Shown here piece by piece: positions 25,603-35,599 of a stretch of DNA of 64,000 nt. Position 1 is the stretch's first letter; each line of letters starts with the position of its first letter. Below the pieces are notes generated by a model. It did no database searches and was not told the origin of the DNA. It saw only the letters and a program-made list of their open reading frames with translations. A program made the position numbers and the translations under genes. Where the stretch lies: assembly GCA_965220965.1 (NCBI GenBank), contig OZ244852.1, positions 2,080,001 to 2,144,000 on the forward strand, given 5' to 3'. Origin of the DNA: Candidatus Marinacidobacterium sp. GTDB lineage: Bacteria > Acidobacteriota > Vicinamibacteria > Marinacidobacterales > Marinacidobacteraceae.

Positions 25603-28491
25603 ATGAAACCCCTTCCCCGACCCGTCCGCGCTCTCGCGGCCTTCGCCGCGCTGGCGCTCCTCGCGGGAGCCCCGGCGCTCGCGCAGACCTCCGGCGAGAT
25701 CGAAGGCCGGGTCACTGATTCCCAGGGGCTCGCCGCGCCAGGCGTGGTCGTGACCCTCTCCGGCGAGGCGCTCATCGCCCCGCAGACCGCCGTCACCCTG
25801 AGCGACGGCTCCTACCGCTTCCGCTCGCTGCGGCGCGGTTCCTACGACCTCCGCTTCGAGATCTCCGGGTTCTCCACTCTCGTCCGGGAGGGCGTCCTCG
25901 TCGAGGGCGGCCGCACGATCACGGTTCCGGCGATCCTCGAAGTGGCGACCGTCGCGGAGACCGTGACCGTCACCGGCGAAGCCCCGGTGGTCGACGTCCG
26001 GACCACCGCAATTTCGAACGACTTCGGCAGGGAGGAGCTCCACGACGTCCCCTCCGCCACCGATGTGTGGGCCGTCCTGGCCCAGACCCCGGGCGTGCGG
26101 ATGCGCGGTTACGACGTGGGGGGATCCCACAAGAGCCAGCAGACCGGCTACGAGAGCTTCGGCATCCGCAGCCAGAACCGCGTTCTCGCCGACGGCGTGG
26201 ACACGACCGAGGGCGAAGGCGGAACCGGCTTCTACTTCGACTACTACTCCATCGAGGAGTTCACGACCGCCGCGGCCGGGGCCGACGTGGAAATGACCGG
26301 CCCGGGATCGATGATCGTCATGACGATGAAGAGCGGCGGCAACGATTTCAGCAGCCTGCTTCACGGGGACTACGAGCCGGGCGCCTTCGTCGGAAACAAC
26401 ATCGACTCGGAACTCGAGGCCCGCAACTTCAGCGGGAACCCGAACCTGCTGTTCTGGGAGGCCCACGGGGATCTCGGCGGCCCGATCGTGAAGGACCGCG
26501 CGTGGTTCTACGGCTTCTACAACCACTTCCGGATCGACAAGCAGGTTTCCGGGGTGGACCCGGAGGTGGCCACCGACCTGGGCGACTTCGACCAGTTCGG
26601 CGGCAAGATCACCGCCGCCCCGACGACGAACGACCAGATCCTCCTCTACACGAACTACCAGCTCAAGCAGAAGCCGAAGCGGGGCCTGTCGAACACGATC
26701 GGCCCCGACTCGGTGCTCGCCCAGGACAGTTGGAGCTGGGCGCACAAGGCCGAGTGGCAGCGGGTCTGGGACGAACGCACGTTCACGACTCTGGCGGCCA
26801 AACACTTCGGGTTCGGGTGGCCGATGGTTCCCCAGGTGGACCCGGAGTCGAACCCACCGCGTTACGACCAGGCCACCAGCATTCTCAGCGGCGCCGGGTG
26901 GTTCAGTGGCGTAACCGGGGCGCCGCCGTTCACGTTCGAGCGCTGGAAGCCCCAGGTCACGGCGACCGCGAACCATTACGTCCCGGACTTCGGCGGCAGC
27001 CACGACTTCAAGGTGGGCTACGAGTTCCAGACGGACAGCCGCCGGTTCGGCGCGAACTCGAACTCGGGGCACATCCGCTACATCGACGACAGCTCCCAGG
27101 GGCGTCCGTTCGATGTGGACCAGATCGCGCTGTTCAGCATGCCGGCGGACGGCCAGATCGAGGCCGACTCGCGGAACACCCACCACGATGTCTTTGCGCA
27201 GGACACCTGGCGTCCTCATCGCCGGCTGACGCTGAACCTGGGCGTCCGTTACGGCCGTCAGCGGACGCACTTCCTGGCGTCGGAGTCGAATCCGCTCTTC
27301 GCCGACTTCTTCCCGACCGGCGAGACCGAGGGACAGACGCTCGTGGTCTGGGACACCTGGGCGCCGCGGGTCGGCGCGACGTACGAGATCTCGTCCGGCA
27401 GCGTGCTGAAGGCGCACTACGGGCGCTACTTCGTGAATCTCGCCGACGCCCACCGACGGGCTGACCCGGCGAACGTCGCGTGGATCCGGTTCGACTTCCT
27501 CGACCCGAACGGGAACGGGCTCTACGACGGACCGGCGGAACTCGGCGCGGTCCGCGCGACGTCCGGCGCCACCGGGACGGAACTGACGGCAATCGGCACC
27601 CCGGTGAACCCGGATCTCGAACAGGAATTTGTGGACGAGTTCAGTCTCTCGATCGAACACGAACTGGTCGAGGACACCGCGGTGCGCGCCTCGTGGGTCC
27701 AGAAGCGGCGCAACGCCGATAGCGGACAGTGGAACGCTCCCCAGCAGCTCGCATTGCTGAACGGCGAGGGAATCGCCTGCGGAACCGACTTCGACTGCCC
27801 GGTGAACGCGCTCACCGGAGCCCCGATCAACATCCAGCGGGTCCCCGATGCAGTGGCCGATGTCGTGGACATCGGAACCGACACGTTCCCCGGCATGGAG
27901 TCCCGATACGACACGATCCAGATCGCCACCGACCGCCGTTTCGCCGGCGGGTTCTTCATCCAGGCGAGTTTCGACTACCAGTGGCGCGATGAACACCGCG
28001 CCGCCGCCGGCGAATCCACCAGCCCGCTGACCGCCGACCCCATCGATGTGGGCTCCGACGGCCACGGAACCATCTGGCAGAACCACAGTCTGGACGTGGA
28101 CTTCCGGCAGAAGACCACGAACTGGAACGGCCGCCTGCTGGCCCGCTACGCCTTCGGCTGGGGCGCCGCGCTCTCCGCGAATCTGCGTTACCAGAGCGGC
28201 TGGCCGTGGGCCCCGATCCAGACGGTTTCGGTTCCCGGCTCCGGAACCCAGCGGGTGTTCCTTTCGAACCTGGACGAGAACCGGTCCGAAGACACGACGC
28301 TGCTGGACGTCCGGATCGAGAAGGCTTTCGACTTCGAGGGCGCGCAGCTCACCGCCATGCTGGATGTCTACAACGCCCTGAACTCGAACGCGGTCACGAA
28401 CTTCAACCTGCGCACCGGCGCGAACTACTACGACGTCATCGCGGCCCTCGATCCCCGGGCCGCCAAGGTGGGACTCCGCCTCACCTTCTGA
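25603..28491 (+). CDS. TonB-dependent receptor with N-terminal carboxypeptidase-regulatory-like domain (paralog 1)
   Basis: AAGGAG RBS, signal peptide, ETVTVTGE TonB-box-like motif, KSGGN, LGGPIVKDRAWFY, QDTW, C-terminal RLTF. Confidence 0.9.
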   Translation: MKPLPRPVRALAAFAALALLAGAPALAQTSGEIEGRVTDSQGLAAPGVVVTLSGEALIAPQTAVTLSDGSYRFRSLRRGSYDLRFEISGFSTLVREGVLVEGGRTITVPAILEVATVAETVTVTGEAPVVDVRTTAISNDFGREELHDVPSATDVWAVLAQTPGVRMRGYDVGGSHKSQQTGYESFGIRSQNRVLADGVDTTEGEGGTGFYFDYYSIEEFTTAAAGADVEMTGPGSMIVMTMKSGGNDFSSLLHGDYEPGAFVGNNIDSELEARNFSGNPNLLFWEAHGDLGGPIVKDRAWFYGFYNHFRIDKQVSGVDPEVATDLGDFDQFGGKITAAPTTNDQILLYTNYQLKQKPKRGLSNTIGPDSVLAQDSWSWAHKAEWQRVWDERTFTTLAAKHFGFGWPMVPQVDPESNPPRYDQATSILSGAGWFSGVTGAPPFTFERWKPQVTATANHYVPDFGGSHDFKVGYEFQTDSRRFGANSNSGHIRYIDDSSQGRPFDVDQIALFSMPADGQIEADSRNTHHDVFAQDTWRPHRRLTLNLGVRYGRQRTHFLASESNPLFADFFPTGETEGQTLVVWDTWAPRVGATYEISSGSVLKAHYGRYFVNLADAHRRADPANVAWIRFDFLDPNGNGLYDGPAELGAVRATSGATGTELTAIGTPVNPDLEQEFVDEFSLSIEHELVEDTAVRASWVQKRRNADSGQWNAPQQLALLNGEGIACGTDFDCPVNALTGAPINIQRVPDAVADVVDIGTDTFPGMESRYDTIQIATDRRFAGGFFIQASFDYQWRDEHRAAAGESTSPLTADPIDVGSDGHGTIWQNHSLDVDFRQKTTNWNGRLLARYAFGWGAALSANLRYQSGWPWAPIQTVSVPGSGTQRVFLSNLDENRSEDTTLLDVRIEKAFDFEGAQLTAMLDVYNALNSNAVTNFNLRTGANYYDVIAALDPRAAKVGLRLTF

Positions 28492-28502
28492 CTTCTTCCA
28501 CG

Positions 28503-28530
28503 GGCTGGCGGTCCTCCGGGGCCGCCAGCC
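28503..28530 (+). terminator. GC hairpin after TBDR paralog 1
   Basis: GGCTGGCGGTCC-TCCG-GGGCCGCCAGCC; weak U-tract. Confidence 0.5.
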
Positions 28531-28544
28531 TCCGTTCGCGTCCA

Positions 28545-28752
28545 GTGACAGGTTTCCGCCGGGTTCGCGTCCTGCGCAGGTGGGAGAGCCTCGCCCCCGC
28601 CCTGACCCACAGGATGCGGTCCGCTGGCTCCGGGAGGATCGGCAGGGACAGCAAGAGGCCGAGCGCCGCCGCATGTTCCCGCGCTGATCGGCCTCTTCGG
28701 CGCAGGGCTGATCGTGCTGGGGCAGTTCCTGCTCCAACGTCTCGCCGGGTGA
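28545..28752 (+). pseudogene. Internally deleted relic copy of the array unit (copy 0)
   Basis: A degenerate version of the unit upstream region joins directly to VPALIGLFGAGLIVLGQFLLQRLAG* (28675-28752). Promoter, head and stalk are missing. Confidence 0.8.
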
Positions 28753-28946
28753 AGACCCCGGGCGCTCCCGGCGGCGGCCCGAGAAACTGACAAAGCGCCG
28801 CCGGGTGGCAGGTTTCCGGCGACTTTGCGTCTTGCGTCTCTCGGAGAGCCCAGCCCCCGCCCTGACGCTCAGGTCGGACTGGCGGGCTCCCGGGAGGATC
28901 CGCATGAACACGAAGAAGCCCGCAGCCGCTGCCCAGGGCGCGCCGG

Positions 28947-28975
28947 TTGCCGTCGCGCAGGCACGTCCCTACACT
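28947..28975 (+). promoter_or_regulatory. Sigma70-like promoter repeated before every array gene (first copy given)
   Basis: TTGCCG-N17-TACACT; also at 29705-29733, 30780-30808, 31663-31691, 32595-32623 and 33614-33642 (TTGCCA). Confidence 0.65.
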
Positions 28976-29008
28976 GGAGTTGAGCGACCCGCGCCGGTTC
29001 GACCCCCG

Positions 29009-29506
29009 ATGACCTCACCCCCGACGAAGCCGGAGCCGTCGCCGCCCACCTCGGCGCAGACGGCGGCGCGGGCGCTTGCCGAGGCCCCGGTTCCGCAGGA
29101 CGAGCTGACCCGGTGGCTCTACAGCACGCTGGATTCCCACCGGCTCGAAGCGCGCGAGGACCGTCGGGACATGGAGGGACGGCTGAACGAGCAGTTCTCC
29201 TCCGTCGATCGTCGGCTCTCCGTACTGGAGCGCCAAGGGGCCGCCGTGGAAGGCCGGCTCTCCGCGGTGGAAGGTCAGGTCGCCGAACACAGGGCCGAGA
29301 CCCGGGAGCAGTTCAAGGCGGTCAACGCCACCCTGAGCGAGCTCTGCGCGCGGATGGATCGCATGGAGGCGGCGTCGGCCGCCGAAAAGGAGCAGCGGGA
29401 CCGGCTATTCCGCGTCATCGCGTGGCTCGTTCCGGCCCTGATCGGCATCTTCGGGGTGGGGCTCGCTGTGTTCGGGCAGTTTCTGCTGCAGCGCCTCGCC
29501 GGCTGA
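29009..29506 (+). CDS. C-terminally membrane-anchored coiled-coil protein, copy 1 (165 aa)
   Basis: Pro-rich N-terminus, 4 heptads, C-terminal TM helix. Alternative in-frame start at ATG 28904 (MNTKK) with a GGAGG RBS. Confidence 0.8.
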   Translation: MTSPPTKPEPSPPTSAQTAARALAEAPVPQDELTRWLYSTLDSHRLEAREDRRDMEGRLNEQFSSVDRRLSVLERQGAAVEGRLSAVEGQVAEHRAETREQFKAVNATLSELCARMDRMEAASAAEKEQRDRLFRVIAWLVPALIGIFGVGLAVFGQFLLQRLAG

Positions 29507-29766
29507 AGACTCCAGGCCACCGTCTCCCGGCGACGGCCCGAGAAACTGACAACGCGGCGCCGGGTGACAGGTTTCCGGCGGCGGTGCGTCTTGCTCCTGT
29601 CGGAGAGCCCAGCCCCCGCCCTGACACCCAGGTGCGGCACGCGGGCTCCGGGAGCATCCGCATGGACACGAAGAAGCCCACAGCCGTTGCCCAGGGCCCG
29701 CCGGTTGCCGCCGCACAGGCCCGGCCCTACACTGGAGTCAAGCCGCCTGCGCTGGTTCAACCCCCG

Positions 29767-30381
29767 ATGACCTCACCCCCGAAGAAGCCGGAGCAGTCGT
29801 CGCCGACCCCCGCGCGGGCGCTTACCGAGGCTCCCGTTCCGCAGGACGGGCTCGGTCTGTGGCTCTACAGCGCGCTGGATTCCCAGCGGCTCGAAGCCCG
29901 CGAGGAGCGTCGGGACATGGAGGGGCGACTGAACGAGCGCTTCTCGGAACTCGGCGGCAAGGTCTCCTCCGTCGATCGCCGGCTCTCCGCCGTCGAACGC
30001 CAGGGGGCCGCGGTGGAAGGCCGGCTCTCCGGGGTGGAAGGCCGGCTCTCCGCCGTTGAGACTGGGCTCGCCGAACTTGGGAAGCGACTCGACCACCAGG
30101 GCGCCGAACTCCGAGGGCACATTGACAGCCAAATCAGCGAGCTCAGAGGGCAAATCGACAACCTCAGAGAAGAGACTCGCGCCGATCGGAACGCCATCGT
30201 CGCCACCCTGAGCGAGCTCTGCGCACGGCTCGACCGCATGGAGGCGGCCTCGGCCGCCGAGAAGGAGCAACGGGACCGGCGGTGGCGCGTGATCGCGTGG
30301 CTCGTTCCCGCCCTGATCGGCATCTTCGGGGTGGGGCTCGCTGTGTTCGGGCAGTTCCTGCTGCAACGCCTCGCCGGCTGA
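29767..30381 (+). CDS. Membrane-anchored coiled-coil protein, copy 2 (204 aa)
   Basis: Paralog with heptads plus 2 hendecads; C-terminal TM. Confidence 0.8.
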   Translation: MTSPPKKPEQSSPTPARALTEAPVPQDGLGLWLYSALDSQRLEAREERRDMEGRLNERFSELGGKVSSVDRRLSAVERQGAAVEGRLSGVEGRLSAVETGLAELGKRLDHQGAELRGHIDSQISELRGQIDNLREETRADRNAIVATLSELCARLDRMEAASAAEKEQRDRRWRVIAWLVPALIGIFGVGLAVFGQFLLQRLAG

Positions 30382-30517
30382 ACACCCGGGCCGCCGTCTC
30401 CCGGCGGCGGCCCGAGAAACTGACAACGCGGCGCCGGGTGGCAGATTTCCGCCGGCTTTGCGTCTTGCTCCTGTCGGAGAGCCCACCCCCCGCCCTGACG
30501 CTCAGGTCCGGCGTTAG

Positions 30518-30715
30518 CAACCTGTTGACGAAGTCACGCGGCCCGGTTCTCCCGGTAGGGGCTCGAGCGGCGATCCATCCCGCCCGAACCGCGCCCCTTC
30601 GGGGCGCTCATCGTTGCGTTTCGCTCGGAATATTCCCGATATTCCTCGCTCACGCGCCTTGTCGGCCGGGCGCCTCACCGCTCTCGGCGCTGCACGGGAC
30701 TTCATCAACAGGCTG
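30518..30715. mobile_element. MITE-like element 1
   Basis: Terminal inverted repeats CAACCTGTTGACGAAGTC / GACTTCATCAACAGGCTG. Absent from the equivalent site in other array units; TTAG on the left flank. Confidence 0.75.
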
Positions 30716-30841
30716 CCGGCTCCCGGGAGCACCCGCATGGACACGAGGAAGCCCACGGCCGCTGCCCAGGGCGCGCCGGTTGCCGCCGCCCAGGCCCGGC
30801 CCTACACTGGAGTTAAGCGGCCTGCGCTGGTTCAACCCCCG

Positions 30842-31465
30842 ATGACCTCACCCCCGAAGAAGCCGGAGCCGTCGCCGCCCACTTCGGCGCGGACGGCGGC
30901 GCGACCGCTCGCCGAGGCCCCGGTTACCCAGGACGGGCTGACCCGGTGGCTCTACAGCGCGCTGGATTCCCACCGGCTCGAAGCCCGCGAGGACCGTCGG
31001 GACATGGAGGGGCGGCTGAACGAGCAGTTCTCCTCCGTTGATCGCCGGCTTTCCGCAGTCGAACGCCAGGGGTCCGCGGTGGACAGCCGGCTCTCCGCAG
31101 TGGACGGCCGAGTCTCCACAGTTGAAGGTCGGCTCTCGAAGGTAGAGAACCGGCTCTCGAAGGTAGAGAACCGGCTCTCGGCTGTGGAAGGCCGGCTCTC
31201 CGCAGTGGAAGGCCGGCTCTCCGCGGTTGAGGGCCAGCTCGCCGAACACAGGGCCGAGACCCGGGAGGAGTTCAAGGCGGTCAACGCCACCCTCAGCCAA
31301 ATCTGCGCGAGGCTCGACCGCATGGAGGCGGCCTCGGCCGCCGAGAAGGAGCAGCGGGACCGGAGGTGGCGTGTGATCGCGTGGCTCGTTCCGGCCCTGA
31401 TCGGCATCTTCGGGGTGGGGTTCGCTGTGTTCGGGCAGTTCCTACTGCAACGCCTCGCCGGCTGA
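30842..31465 (+). CDS. Membrane-anchored coiled-coil protein, copy 3 (207 aa)
   Basis: 10 heptads (SAVEGRL/SKVENRL type), no hendecads; C-terminal TM. Confidence 0.8.
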   Translation: MTSPPKKPEPSPPTSARTAARPLAEAPVTQDGLTRWLYSALDSHRLEAREDRRDMEGRLNEQFSSVDRRLSAVERQGSAVDSRLSAVDGRVSTVEGRLSKVENRLSKVENRLSAVEGRLSAVEGRLSAVEGQLAEHRAETREEFKAVNATLSQICARLDRMEAASAAEKEQRDRRWRVIAWLVPALIGIFGVGFAVFGQFLLQRLAG

Positions 31466-31724
31466 ACACCCGGGCCGCCGTCTCCCGGCGACGGCCCAAG
31501 AAACTGACAAAGCGCCGCCGGGTGGCAGGTTTCCGGCGACTTTGCGTCTTGCGTCTCTCGGAGAGCCCAGCCCCCGCCCTGACACCCAGGTGCGGCACGC
31601 GGGCTCCGGGAGCATCCGCATGGACACGAAGAAGCCCACGGCCGTTGCCCAGGGCGCGCCGGTTGCCGCCGCCCAGGCCCGGCCCTACACTGGAGTTGAC
31701 GAAATCGCGCCGGTTCGAACTCCG

Positions 31725-32396
31725 ATGACCTCACCCCCGACGAAGCCGGAGCCGTCGCCGCCCACCTCGGCGCAGACGGCGGCGCGGACGCTCGCCGAGG
31801 CTCCGGTTCCCCAGGACGGGCTGACCCGGTGGCTCTACAGCGCGCTGGATTCCCACCGGCTCGAAGCGCGCGAGGACCGTCGGGACATGGAGGGGCGGCT
31901 GAACGAGCAGTTCTCCTCCGTCGATCGCCGGCTCTCCGCCGTCGAACGCCAGGGGGCCGCGGTGGACAGCCGGCTCTCCGGAGTGGAAGGCCGGCTCTCC
32001 GCAGTGGAGACGGGGCTCGCCGAGCTCGGGAAGCGAATCGACCGCCAGGGCGCCGAAATCCGAGGGCGCAGCGACAGCCAGTTCGCCGAACTCCGAGGGT
32101 ATATCGACAGTCAGGTTTCCGAGCTCCGGGGGCACATCGACAGCCGGGTCAGCGATCTCAGAGGGCAAATCGAAAACCACAGAGCCGAGACCCGCGCCGA
32201 TCGGAACGCCATCGTCGCCACCCTGAGCGAGCTCTGCGCGCGGATGGATCGCATGGAGGCGGCGTCGGCCGCCGAGAAGGAGCAGCGGGACCGGCGGTGG
32301 CGCGTGATCGCGTGGCTCGTTCCGGCGCTGATCGGGATCTTCGGGGTGGGGCTTGCTGTGTTCGGGCAGTTCCTCCTGCAACGCCTCGCCGGCTGA
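31725..32396 (+). CDS. Membrane-anchored coiled-coil protein, copy 4 (223 aa)
   Basis: Heptads plus 4 hendecads; C-terminal TM. Confidence 0.8.
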   Translation: MTSPPTKPEPSPPTSAQTAARTLAEAPVPQDGLTRWLYSALDSHRLEAREDRRDMEGRLNEQFSSVDRRLSAVERQGAAVDSRLSGVEGRLSAVETGLAELGKRIDRQGAEIRGRSDSQFAELRGYIDSQVSELRGHIDSRVSDLRGQIENHRAETRADRNAIVATLSELCARMDRMEAASAAEKEQRDRRWRVIAWLVPALIGIFGVGLAVFGQFLLQRLAG

Positions 32397-32656
32397 CGGC
32401 CCCGGGCCGCCGTCTCCCGGCGGCGGCCCGAGAAACTGACAAAGCGCCGCCGGGTGGCAGGTTTCCGGCGACTTTGCGTCTTGCACCTTCCGGAGAGCCC
32501 GGCCCCCGCCCTGACACTCAGGTCGGACTGGCGGGCTCCGGGAGGATCCGCATGGACACGAAGAAGCCCACGGCCGCTGCCCAAGGCGCGCCGGTTGCCG
32601 TCGCGCAGGCACGTCCCTACACTGGAGGTGAGCCTCCGGCGCTCGTTCGACCCCCG

Positions 32657-33163
32657 ATGACCTCACACCCAAAGAAGCCGGAGCAGTCCTCGCCGACCCC
32701 GGCGCGGGCGCTTACCGAGGCTCCCGTTCCGCAGGACGGGCTCGGTCTGTGGCTCTACAGCGCGCTGGATTCCCAGCGGCTCGAAGCCCGCGAGGAGCGT
32801 CGGGACATGGAGGGGCGACTGAACGAGCGCTTCTGGGAACTCGGCGGCAAGGTCTCCTCCGTCGATCGCCGGCTCTCCGCCGTCGAACGCCAGGGGGCCG
32901 CGGTGGAAGGCCGGCTCTCCGCCGTTGAGACTGGGCTCGCCGAACACCGGGCCGAGACCCGGGAGGAGTTCAAGGCGGTCAACGCCACCCTGAGCGAACT
33001 CTGCGCACGCCTCGATCGCATGGAGGCCGCCTCGGCCGCCGAGAAGGAGCAGCGGGACCGGCGGTGGCGCGTGATCGCGTGGCTCGTTCCGGCCCTGATC
33101 GGGATCTTCGGTGTGGGGCTCGCTGTGTTCGGACATTTCCTGCTCCAACGCCTCGCCGGCTGA
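32657..33163 (+). CDS. Membrane-anchored coiled-coil protein, copy 5 (168 aa)
   Basis: Short stalk, no hendecads; C-terminal TM. Confidence 0.8.
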   Translation: MTSHPKKPEQSSPTPARALTEAPVPQDGLGLWLYSALDSQRLEAREERRDMEGRLNERFWELGGKVSSVDRRLSAVERQGAAVEGRLSAVETGLAEHRAETREEFKAVNATLSELCARLDRMEAASAAEKEQRDRRWRVIAWLVPALIGIFGVGLAVFGHFLLQRLAG

Positions 33164-33300
33164 AGGCTCCGGGCCACCGTCTCCCGGCGACGGCCCGAGA
33201 AACTGACAACGCGGCGCCGGGTGACAGGTTTCCGGCGCCTTTGCGTCCTGCACCTTCTGGAGAGCCCAGCCCCCGCCCTGACGCTCAGGTCCGGCGTTAG

Positions 33301-33549
33301 CAACCTGTTGACGAAGTCACGCGGCCCGGTTCTCCCGGTAGGGGCTCGAGCGGCGATCGCCCCCACCGGGAGGACTGGCCCCGCCCGAACCGCGCCCCTT
33401 CGGGGCGCTCATCGTTGCGTTTCATTCGGCATCCCGATGCCGGTTCTCCCGGTAGGGGCCCTCCCTCACGCGCCTTGTCGGCCGGGCGCCTCACCGCCAG
33501 TTCTCCCGGTGGGGGCCTCGGCGCTGCACGGGACTTCATCAACAGGCTG
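33301..33549. mobile_element. MITE-like element 2 (contains four 20-nt inserts)
   Basis: Same terminal inverted repeats and insertion site as element 1; longer because of internal micro-insertions. Confidence 0.75.
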
Positions 33550-33651
33550 CCGGCTCCCGGGAGCACCCGCATGGACACGAAGAAGCCCACAGCCGTTGCC
33601 CAGGGCGCGCCGGTTGCCACCGCACAGGCCCGGCCCTACACTGGGGTCAAA

Positions 33652-33846
33652 CAGCCCGTTGACAAAGTCCCGCGGCGTTCGAGCGGCGATGCATCCCGCC
33701 CGAACCGCACCCCTTTGGGGCGCTCATCGTTGCGTTTCATTCGGCATCCCGATGCCGGTTCTCCCGGTAGGGGCCCTCGCTCACGCGCCTTGTCGGCCGG
33801 GCGCCTCACCGCTCTCGGCGCTGCACGCGACTTTATCAACGGACTG
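33652..33846. mobile_element. MITE-like element 3, between the promoter and ATG of copy 6
   Basis: Terminal inverted repeats CAGCCCGTTGACAAAGTC / GACTTTATCAACGGACTG, flanked by TCAA(A) and TTAA. The empty site in copies 2 and 3 has a single TCAA or TTAA. Confidence 0.78.
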
Positions 33847-33875
33847 TTAAGCCGCCCGCGCCGGTTCGACCCCCG

Positions 33876-34568
33876 ATGACCTCATCCCCGAAGAAGCCGG
33901 AGCAGTCGTCGCCGACCCCGGCGCGGGCGCTTGCCGAGGCCCCGGTTCCACAGGATGGGCTGGGTCTGTGGCTCTACAGCGCGCTGGATTCCCAGCGGCT
34001 CGAAGCCCGCGAGGAGCGTCGGGACATGGAGGGGCGACTGAACGAGCGCTTCTCGGAACTCGGCGGCAAGGTCTCCTCCGTCGATCGCCGGCTCTCCGCC
34101 GTCGAACGCCAGGGGGCCGCGGTGGAAGGCCGGCTCTCCGCGGTGGAGACCGGGCTCGCCGAGCTTGGGAAGCGACTCGACAACCAGGGCGTCGAACTCC
34201 GAGGGCGCAGCGACAACCAGTTCGCCGAGCTTCGGGGTTACATCGACAGCCAGGTTTCCGAGCTCCGGGGTCACATCGACAGCCAGGTTTCCGAGCTCCG
34301 AGGTCACATTGACAGCCAGGTCTCCGAGCTCCGAAGTTACGTCGACAGCCAGATCGCCGAACTCAGGGCCGAGACCCGGGAAGGGTTCAAGGCGGTCAAC
34401 GCCACCCTCAGCCAGATCTGCGCGAGGCTCGACCGCATGGAGGCGGCCTCGGCCGCCCGGGAGGAGCAACGGGAGCAGCGGCGACGCCTGCGCGCCTGGC
34501 TCGGTTCCGCGCTGATCGGCCTCCTCGGCGCGGGGCTCGTCGTACTGGGGCAGTTCCTGCTCCAGTGA
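33876..34568 (+). CDS. Membrane-anchored coiled-coil protein, copy 6 (230 aa)
   Basis: 6 hendecads (SELRGHIDSQV type); divergent C-terminal TM. Confidence 0.8.
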   Translation: MTSSPKKPEQSSPTPARALAEAPVPQDGLGLWLYSALDSQRLEAREERRDMEGRLNERFSELGGKVSSVDRRLSAVERQGAAVEGRLSAVETGLAELGKRLDNQGVELRGRSDNQFAELRGYIDSQVSELRGHIDSQVSELRGHIDSQVSELRSYVDSQIAELRAETREGFKAVNATLSQICARLDRMEAASAAREEQREQRRRLRAWLGSALIGLLGAGLVVLGQFLLQ

Positions 34569-34666
34569 CCGGGGCGCCGTAGGCCCGGGCCCCGAGGCCC
34601 ACCCCGCCACCACGCCGCCCGGCGGGAGCGGCGGCCCGCGGTCGTGCGGCGACGCCGCGCGGGGCC

Positions 34667-35599
34667 TCAGCGGGACGGGACGTCCACTTCGCCGCGGATG
34701 TCCCCGTAGCGGATCCGCGAGCGCTTCGTCCCGCGAACTGTGAGCCCTCCCTCGACATCGCGGACCTCGACGCCGCCGGAGCCGGCGTCCTCGATCCGGA
34801 CCTCGCCACCGACTCCCTCGATCCCGATGCTCCCCGAGCCATCCTCTCCGACGAGCACGCTCCCGCCAACGACGCGGACGCGAACGCTCCCGCCCCGATC
34901 TTCGAGGCGCACATCGCCCCCCACGTCGGCGATGCGGACGCTTCCGGACCCGTCGTCAACGGTCACGCTGCCCTCCACCCCCTCGATCCGGAGGCCTCCC
35001 GAACCGTCCTCCACGGTCACATCGCCGGCGATCTGGCGGATCTCGAGGCTCCCCGAACCGTCCCGCACCTGCGCCTCCGCGGCCCGCTCGATCGTCAGCG
35101 ACCCGGACCCGTCCTCGATGTCCACCGCCCCGACATCGGAGATCCGGACGGAGCCGGAACGGTCCTCCAGCCGGATCGCCGAGACGGCCGGAACACGGAC
35201 ATCGAGGTCGATCCGGGCGTAGTCCCGGTCCCACCAGCCGCCGTTCCGCTCGGGGACACGCGCCTCCAGCCGTCCGGATTCCAGCGTCACCGACAGATCT
35301 TCCAGGATCGCCTGGCTCGACGCGCACAGCGTCGCGGTCACGAGCACCTCATCCAGGTCCGCCTCGCCCCGGATCGCGACCGCCCCCGGGCCGCTCCGCA
35401 CGAAGAGCGAGTCCGTCGCCGACTCCGAGAGACTCACGGTGTCCGTGGATTCGCAGCGGTCGCCGTCATAGGCGAGCGCCGTCCAGCCCGGCCCGTCTCC
35501 GTCGATGTGGACGACGCAGCCCGACGCCAGCGCCGCGCCGATCGCCAGAACCCCTCCCCGAACCCATCGGCCTGTCCCGTTTCCCGTGCTCGCTGTCAT
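34667..35599 (-). CDS. DUF4097/adhesin-like beta-strand repeat lipoprotein
   Basis: GGAGG RBS, lipobox LASGC, many DGSGS(V/L)RI repeats. Confidence 0.75.
   Translation of the reverse strand: MTASTGNGTGRWVRGGVLAIGAALASGCVVHIDGDGPGWTALAYDGDRCESTDTVSLSESATDSLFVRSGPGAVAIRGEADLDEVLVTATLCASSQAILEDLSVTLESGRLEARVPERNGGWWDRDYARIDLDVRVPAVSAIRLEDRSGSVRISDVGAVDIEDGSGSLTIERAAEAQVRDGSGSLEIRQIAGDVTVEDGSGGLRIEGVEGSVTVDDGSGSVRIADVGGDVRLEDRGGSVRVRVVGGSVLVGEDGSGSIGIEGVGGEVRIEDAGSGGVEVRDVEGGLTVRGTKRSRIRYGDIRGEVDVPSR

Follow-up and report, generated by a model that had tools for sequence, protein, structure and literature searches.

The 64,000-nucleotide stretch of the Candidatus Marinacidobacterium sp. genome analysed here (contig OZ244852.1; hereafter the window) carries, on the + strand between window positions 28538 and 34568, a chromosomal tandem array of paralogous genes. 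These genes probably encode tail-anchored coiled-coil rods that serve as membrane-anchored spacers or tethers presenting a short RPYTG peptide, a picture drawn from the genes and from predictions made on them. The unit recurs at a spacing of 746–1417 nt, as found by a repeat search, and the array contains five intact genes, one broken gene (copy 6) and one relic (Table 1). Each protein would start with ~60 disordered Pro/Ala-rich residues, followed by an uninterrupted helix running from a PVPQD motif to the C-terminus, with a stalk made of 7- and 11-residue modules. The rods would form parallel, in-register homo-oligomers in the cytoplasm, standing on the inner membrane, and would hold their flexible N-terminal peptide ~17–25 nm off the membrane (15–42 nm in a second subfamily encoded elsewhere in the genome).

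A first-pass annotation of this DNA had described a tandem array of six intact paralogs of 165, 204, 207, 223, 168 and 230 aa plus one relic. The array and the six lengths, counted from an ATG that opens MTSPP, MTSHP or MTSSP, are borne out exactly by six + strand open reading frames (ORFs; ends in Table 1). An alternative ATG, located 105 nt farther upstream and 7 nt behind GGGAG, opens MDTKKP or MNTKKP. This upstream ATG is the better start, since it lies behind a GGAG ribosome site, since the lengths that it gives for copies 1–5 (Table 1) are the same as those of the protein-database gene calls, and since the GGAG-N7-ATG element and the RPYTG motif encoded behind it are kept in the second subfamily, at an identity of merely 39–42%. 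Five of the six paralogs are indeed intact, but copy 6 has lost its N-terminus: its first 27 codons (33571–~33651) are cut off from the remainder by a ~190-nt repeat resembling a miniature inverted-repeat transposable element (MITE). Copy 6 is also the most divergent copy, with a tail 4 aa shorter. The relic consists of a leader joined to a transmembrane (TM) tail (28538–28752); the detached N-terminal piece of copy 6 is a second degenerate piece, and the most degenerate copies are those at both edges of the array.

The differences in length between the copies are explained by repeat modules. Tandem Repeats Finder (TRF) returned nine rows. Six rows of 21-nt and two of 33-nt repeats lie inside the genes, and these repeats are imperfect (69–82% matches); the ninth row is a 15-nt repeat downstream. 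The central part of each copy consists of a 9-residue opening, n heptads, m hendecads and a 12-residue closing piece, and totals 42, 85, 84, 100, 49 and 115 residues in copies 1 to 6, respectively. The heptads are of the type RLSAVEG (hydrophobic periodicity 3.51, computed for the run in copy 3) and the hendecads of the type ELRGHIDSQVS (3.67, for the run in copy 6). The arithmetic proposed at first pass (copy 3 minus copy 1 = 6 × 7; copy 4 minus copy 1 = 2 × 7 + 4 × 11; copy 2 minus copy 5 = 2 × 7 + 2 × 11; copy 6 minus copy 5 = 6 × 11 − 4) is exact, also at the level of modules. From PVPQD to the membrane, the stalks of the intact copies 1–5 (Table 1) correspond to ~17–25 nm, computed at 1.5 Å per residue. 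Copies 2 and 3 reach near-equal stalk lengths (154 and 153 aa) with different modules, six heptads plus two hendecads in one and ten heptads in the other.

In the AlphaFold2 (AF2) model, built on a 10-row family alignment, the predicted local distance difference test score (pLDDT) is 38–54 at residues 1–60, whereas residues 65–199 form one helix with a pLDDT of 81–90. By this model residues 1–60 are disordered and contain no folded head, and the shared head that had been described for these proteins is not a folded domain. The leader is 55–60% Pro, Ala, Ser and Thr, has no hydrophobic stretch, and carries an invariant (A)RPYTG peptide at residues 21–25. A six-frame search of the genome with the pattern [RPA]PYT[GE] gave 15 occurrences, 11 of which fall in the coiled-coil family, always 21–25 residues after the first ATG. 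At the other end of the protein a membrane-proximal box, ATLSELCARLDRMEAASAAEKEQRDRRWR, is conserved, followed by a single C-terminal TM segment, which is the one hydrophobic segment in each protein (Kyte–Doolittle value over 19 residues, KD19, 2.1–2.4).

Neither a signal peptide nor an N-terminal hydrophobic stretch was found in the array proteins, and the 15 residues before the TM segment hold 4–5 Lys/Arg, against 0–1 after it. On these two grounds the positive-inside rule most likely places the rod in the cytoplasm, as a tail-anchored protein. The homo-trimer modelling suggested at first pass, carried out with residues 58–200 of copy 1, gave a parallel in-register bundle with a score of 0.74, compared with 0.00 for the best of three controls. 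The runs share at least 88% of the contacts, the pLDDT of the partners is at least 82, and each contact joins residues of the same number, over the range 65–162 and at 3/4 spacing. In a calibration that used two copies, not three, the mark set for the score was passed by 21 of the 30 proteins known as solved pairs and by 0 of 23 solved as single chains. Taken with the AF2 helix and the hydrophobicity, the model agrees with the C-terminal TM anchor and coiled-coil stalk originally proposed, and predicts tail-anchored rods. A sequence search of solved structures returned only generic coiled coils, the best at an E-value of 2e-4 (a spike HR1 mimic).

The genome (3.25 Mb, 2 contigs) holds two further arrays besides that of the window (Table 1), and the three arrays together comprise eleven family genes. 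Four features of the window array recur in the further ones, namely [RPA]PYT[GE] at residues 21–25, the Pro-rich linker, PVPQD, and the box EQRDR..R.IAWLVPA followed by the TM segment; the stalks of the further arrays have 100–280 residues made of 7-, 11-, 18-, 22- and 33-residue units (15–42 nm). When the 28 genomes of the taxonomic family were searched with a family profile, relatives turned up in 3, each belonging to the genus of the window, and the other 25 have no family member at E ≤ 1e-5. Two sister species carry one and three dispersed family genes, with 11- or 22-residue repeats. A HMMER search of 1.84 billion representative sequences gave 41 matches at E ≤ 1e-3, only 4 of them at 1e-10, and the weak matches were mostly unrelated coiled coils; a word-based protein search gave six matches, all from the organism's own genome. 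A family-profile scan of a collection of genome contigs yielded 82 pattern matches, with none confirmed, and none of the 10 relatives looked up in protein clusters has a usable name. In scans with Pfam, NCBIfam, PHROGs and PADLOC, all matches were coiled-coil noise below threshold (SMC, ZorA, JetC, spanin, apolipoprotein), apart from a match of copy 3, the only copy above any Pfam cut-off, to DUF7310 (PF23991). This match, of 41.6 bits (cut-off 40), comes from the ten-heptad run, with the other five copies at 15–18.4 bits, and we read it as a reflection of repeat composition, not as a family assignment. Literature searches on hendecad repeats with transmembrane segments and bacterial paralogs had no match, and one on coiled-coil proteins of Marinacidobacter found nothing relevant. 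Judging from these searches, the family is an orphan, restricted to one genus within Vicinamibacteria-like Acidobacteriota.

The conserved segments of the proteins are under purifying selection. The pooled ratio of nonsynonymous to synonymous differences per site (pN/pS) is 0.47 in the 35 codons before the second ATG, and 0.41 and 0.33 in the other two of three conserved segments, with pS between 0.05 and 0.41. Since synonymous differences reach 0.41, the copies are not very recent. The copies are also mosaic: copies 2, 5 and 6 are set apart from copies 1, 3 and 4 at 13 of the 20 informative sites in the N-terminal segment, whereas at 11 of 27 in the C-terminal segment copies 2 and 4 are set apart from the rest, and the four-gamete test is failed by 370 of 540 site pairs between segments, compared with 18 of 190 within the N-terminal segment. 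The recombination among copies that had been postulated is thus visible as mosaicism. We suggest that copies would arise and come to differ by slippage at the 21- and 33-nt repeats or by unequal recombination between them, together with exchange between paralogs, and that the copies at the edges would be decaying.

The array is not an assembly artefact. Five copy-specific pieces (29182–29339, 30047–30207, 31009–31280, 31937–32222 and 34113–34445) recur with 0 differences in contigs from runs of two studies, one run of which may be the source sample, and they stand at the depth of the flanks (110–125 in X1, 3–5 in X2); two further pieces were recovered in a third study. This check was made on short contigs of public runs, none long enough to cover the whole array, and the listed joints fall within MITE copies. 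Among the runs listed, none was of RNA. The same identity of copy-specific repeat pieces across the runs of two studies speaks against the ongoing variability implied by the earlier description of a variable system.

The copies are separated by six conserved leaders or spacers of ~151–155 nt, 85–94% identical over 15 pairs and at least as conserved as synonymous sites. A GC-rich hairpin of 10 pairs, beginning 5–8 nt after the stop codon and lacking a U tract, is kept in five of the six. The spacers (for example, window 29507–29661) also share an invariant GAGAAACTGACAA...GGAGAGCCC...CCCCCGCCCTGAC stretch. A scan for the sigma-70 consensus found no site before any copy, its single match being inside the 33571 fragment, which does not support the earlier statement that the copies are individually promoted. 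Motifs of the sigma-54 and extracytoplasmic function (ECF) types were looked for in the leader by eye only, without a tool, and were dropped for unfit spacing. In the fold of the spacer consensus 1 of 36 pairs covaries, which gives no support for a structured RNA, and an Rfam scan of 28000–35000 gave one chance miRNA match only. Given the conserved spacers and the hairpin on one side, and the missing sigma-70 site and RNA covariation on the other, separate transcription of the copies is plausible at most.

The MITE-like repeat that breaks copy 6 is 140–255 nt long, has terminal inverted repeats (about CCTGTTGAYGAAGTC), and gave 33 high-scoring segment pairs on contig C1 by blastn and no match in Rfam. 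Four of the 33 copies sit in coiled-coil arrays, at the three window sites of Table 1 (coordinates approximate) and at C1:1718222–1718419, and two of these split genes. Positions 30683–30822 and 33517–33656 are 94% identical, and the leader of copy 3 and that of the copy 6 fragment carry the repeat at the identical point, from which we conclude that the unit was duplicated after the insertion.

Several observations weigh against the reading of the array as a set of membrane-anchored spacers or tethers. The stalk lengths are unevenly graded (111, 118, 153, 154 and 169 aa) and include two near-equal pairs. The earlier idea that selection maintains graded stalk lengths loses ground on this account, and also because indels of module size arise by themselves when existing 21/33-nt repeats slip or exchange unequally, and are therefore no proof of selection for register. 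The claim that every indel keeps both the frame and the 7/11 register is correct for the array, in which all differences are whole modules. In one relative, however, an indel of 13 residues, which does not fit the 7/11 steps, distinguishes two near-identical forms (P0008 and the G002 gene); a further pair differs by +33/−11. Each heptad and each hendecad contains a glycine, uncommon for a stable coiled coil. The number of chains in the oligomer model was imposed as three and not compared with two or four; its pass may reflect the likeness of coiled coils to many solved complexes, and the stoichiometry is not fixed by the model. The conservation of the spacers (85–94%) could be due to homogenisation rather than function. 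Finally, no partner gene is conserved beside the three arrays, the flanks of which are unrelated housekeeping genes, leaving the tether idea without genomic support.

The alternative that survives best is that these proteins are true, highly divergent members of the DUF1640/CCDC90-like superfamily, and of the Bdr proteins of Borrelia, that have lost the folded head and perform the role of that family in bacteria. We consider this possible, though not the likelier account. The PF07798 family includes MCUR1, CCDC90B, yeast Put6 and Put7, and prokaryotic members. The name MempromCC, given to this type of protein at first pass, was not found in a literature search. DUF1640-like proteins also have a long coiled-coil stalk and a single C-terminal TM segment with a Trp at its start, as the array proteins do, and the profiles of the two are weakly similar over the membrane-proximal stalk and TM segment. 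Five of the six copies score 14.1–21.0 bits on PF07798 (copy 4 best, at 21.0), each matching the model in its C-terminal half, while copy 1 gives no match at E ≤ 1; none reaches the cut-off of 33.5 bits, nor does any six-frame translation of the genome (best 19.6 bits). Members above the cut-off are present in 9 of 201 genomes of the phylum, and an hhalign comparison of the family with 10 of these bona fide proteins gave a probability of 95%, over only 58 columns (membrane-proximal stalk and TM). A 'putative DUF1640' cluster in the ESM Atlas, at 0.90, is a lead only.

The bona fide PF07798 proteins of the phylum have a helical head (FDT...L..AG....QAEAI), 11-residue repeats in variable number and a Trp-led TM segment. 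According to Hartmann et al. (PMC4786415), the DUF1640 stalk starts with a beta-layer of the form A-T-K-x-[DE]. The corresponding pattern, [aliphatic]-A-T-K-[polar]-[DE], is present in 0 of 10 family members, compared with 6 of 10 PF07798 proteins of the phylum. The array proteins have no folded head either, and unlike DUF1640 proteins they carry a disordered, Pro-rich RPYTG leader and an extra membrane-proximal box of ~22 residues. Moreover, they are amplified in tandem, whereas the PF07798 matches in the genomes G229 and G239 are dispersed. As described for the yeast DUF1640 proteins (PMC7519068), the N-terminal part faces the matrix, and this topology, on the side equivalent to the cytoplasm, agrees with the cytoplasmic rod predicted here.

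The comparison with Bdr leads to a similar result. A tblastn search of 72,556 plasmid records gave four matches, all of them bdr genes of Borrelia turicatae (E 1e-6 to 5e-6). Like the array family, Bdr proteins are multi-copy paralogs within one genome, with a C-terminal hydrophobic anchor and central 11-residue repeats of variable number that share an ...ID(S)... signature; in the array, copies 2, 4 and 6 have two to six such hendecads. Bdr genes are scattered on the linear and cp32 plasmids of Borrelia, whereas the array family is chromosomal, in tandem and between housekeeping genes. Bdr is also defined by an N-terminal domain of 52 residues (NF040499, cut-off 40 bits), which is matched at 94.5 and 90.4 bits by two B. 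turicatae Bdr proteins and by none of the six copies at E ≤ 1. Copies 4 and 6 reach 55–62 bits against Bdr by tblastn or blastp, but the hendecad-free copy 1 and B1 have no Bdr match at E ≤ 10. As a control, copy 1 and B1 score at most 30 bits against PF07798 proteins, and copy 1 scores 42–47 bits against unrelated heptad proteins. Since the copies with few or no hendecads lose it, the similarity to both DUF1640 and Bdr seems to be carried by the repeats.

Bdr itself scores only 20.5–26 bits on PF07798, a point in favour of divergent membership, and Bdr may itself be a relative of DUF1640. By eye, the N-terminal region of Bdr (…ELTKAGINRDIAIDL…ELTYKDIEYLE) resembles the head and beta-layer region of the phylum's PF07798 proteins. 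PMC6856195 lists an antigen of Borrelia miyamotoi under the name 'DUF1640 domain-containing protein'. A 2023 review (PMC10016077) describes Bdr proteins as associated with the inner membrane and of a function still undiscovered, and the earliest Bdr paper that it cites dates from 1999. The resemblance to DUF1640 and Bdr pointed out at first pass therefore stands insofar as these are the nearest known kinds of protein, and fails as membership on the head, the beta-layer motif and the score cut-offs. In our view, the family is best read as a head-less variant of the DUF1640/Bdr type, and not as a demonstrable member.

Two further explanations are improbable, to about the same degree. The 11-residue repeats could be amphipathic helices that lie on a lipid surface, as in apolipoproteins, perilipins and LEA (late embryogenesis abundant) proteins, forming no rod. 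The Pfam Apolipoprotein model does match copy 6 (35 bits, E-value 1.5e-8) and, with 20.4 bits, copy 4, and Bdr behaves alike, but these scores are far under the cut-off of 90 bits. Hydrophobic residues occupy only 3 of 11 positions, in a 4-4-3 spacing that suits a core stripe, not a broad face, and the three-copy model buries exactly this stripe; copies 1, 3 and 5, in addition, have few or no hendecads. Alternatively, a repeat-rich orphan gene may have been spread by recombination and be decaying, having no cellular role, as the degenerate edge copies, the four of 33 MITE copies in arrays (two of them breaking genes) and the absence of the family from 25 of 25 genomes of other genera in the taxonomic family would allow. 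Against such neutral amplification speak the pN/pS of 0.33–0.47 in all three conserved segments, the five ORFs that stay intact despite pS up to 0.3, and the conservation of motif, box and TM segment between subfamilies that are 39–42% identical and in two sister species.

A variable repertoire of rods exposed outside the cytoplasm, changing fast in copy number and length for phage or host interaction, as was offered at first pass, is the least likely of all, even though such systems are built from in-frame repeats and tandem paralogs of the kind present here (21/33 nt), the array is species-specific and the nearest relatives by housekeeping gene are marine metagenome-assembled genomes (MAGs): the uneven lengths, the age of the copies (synonymous divergence up to 0.41) and the cytoplasmic prediction (no signal peptide; positive-inside rule) speak against a fast-varying surface system, as do the imperfect repeats (69–82% matches), the copy-specific pieces identical in runs of two studies, and searches that gave no match in PHROGs or PADLOC beyond coiled-coil noise and none by tblastn among 50,697 phage records.

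Regarding the genomic surroundings, the window array is chromosomal and flanked by genes for a TonB-dependent receptor, NifU, LptD and FG-GAP/ASPIC proteins, and the further arrays have radical-SAM, transketolase, M23 peptidase and FtsX genes as neighbours. No phage or mobile genes were found beside the three arrays, apart from the MITE. The transketolase neighbour is 75–82% identical to proteins of MAGs whose titles name Vicinamibacteria or Candidatus Marinacidobacterium. Between the TonB-dependent receptor and a 310-aa gene, the sister species have hemerythrin-like, lipoprotein and Zn-metalloprotease-like genes, none with an ortholog in the array genome; since the sister species carry other genes at this site, the array is species-specific. 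The G002 interval also includes a small protein with an N-terminal TM segment and EEVAQVR heptads, likewise lacking an ortholog in the array genome. The 310-aa protein (window 34667–35599, − strand) is made of repeated 'GSGS(V/L)RI...V.GDV' units, is 63–67% identical in both sister species, and has no Pfam match at E ≤ 1e-5. In G015, a genome of another genus of the same taxonomic family, four tandem genes (C1:1855825–1859623, − strand) encode proteins with RLEAVEH heptad runs of varying number (193, 183 ... aa). As in the window array, these are tandem paralogs with one TM segment each and stalks that differ by whole repeats, but the TM segment is at the N-terminus, in the reverse topology, and the proteins were missed by the family profile and belong to a different family.

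Table 1. Features of the coiled-coil arrays. Positions refer to the window unless preceded by C1; aa, amino acids.
Feature	Position	Strand	Description
Relic, 5' array edge	28538–28752	+	leader-like part 28538–28645 without start codon, joined to TM-tail remnant
TM tail of relic	stop 28750–28752	+	ends ...GQFLLQRLAG; family profile match 28675–28749
Leader/spacer of copy 1	28753–28903	+	GC hairpin after preceding stop; GGGAG 7 nt before ATG
Copy 1	28904–29506	+	200 aa (165 from second ATG); stalk 111 aa: 3 heptads + end piece
Copy 2	29662–30381	+	239 aa; stalk 154 aa: 6 heptads + 2 hendecads
MITE-like dispersed repeat	30510–30716	.	~20 nt upstream of copy 3 ribosome site; blastn
Copy 3	30737–31465	+	242 aa; stalk 153 aa: 10 heptads
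Copy 4	31620–32396	+	258 aa; stalk 169 aa: 5 heptads + 4 hendecads
Copy 5	32552–33163	+	203 aa; stalk 118 aa: 4 heptads + end piece
MITE-like repeat	33292–33550	.	upstream of detached copy 6 piece; inserted where the copy 3 repeat is
Detached N-terminal piece of copy 6	33571–~33651	+	MDTKKP...ARPYTGVK; frame differs from main ORF
MITE-like repeat	33655–33846	.	inserted within copy 6 coding sequence
Copy 6, main ORF	33876–34568	+	230 aa, internal ATG without ribosome site; stalk 184 aa: 5 heptads + 6 hendecads
Second array	C1:170736–173686		three genes, 370, 266 and 188 aa
Third array	C1:1717237–1718905		201-aa gene + MITE-split copy

Returning to membrane-anchored spacers or tethers, the role that we infer for the rods is to present the RPYTG peptide to a cytoplasmic partner. 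The eukaryotic golgins offer a functional analogy: their long coiled-coil rod is anchored in the membrane by its C-terminus and carries a short, conserved capture motif at the N-terminal far end. The predicted layout of the array proteins is alike, but their rods are much shorter and there is no sequence relation. A more specific idea, in our estimation doubtful, is that the paralogs are cytoplasmic molecular rulers, homo-oligomeric rods whose RPYTG-tipped leaders would hold a partner at a set distance (~15–42 nm across the eleven genes), layering or tethering structures as golgins do, with new lengths generated by repeat recombination.

The narrow distribution of the family, in one genus, limits its interest, and the recurrence of a length-variable array in G015 makes the array less surprising while sharpening the question of what such rods do. 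Compared with its nearest known kinds, the array family keeps the stalk and the anchor but has, in place of the head, a flexible leader bearing a short conserved peptide. The family illustrates cleanly how repeats of 21 and 33 nt make coiled coils of different periodicity and length, in frame, and its eleven natural length variants in one genome amount to a compact natural experiment. If the RPYTG peptide has a partner, both that partner and the effect of rod length would be directly testable.

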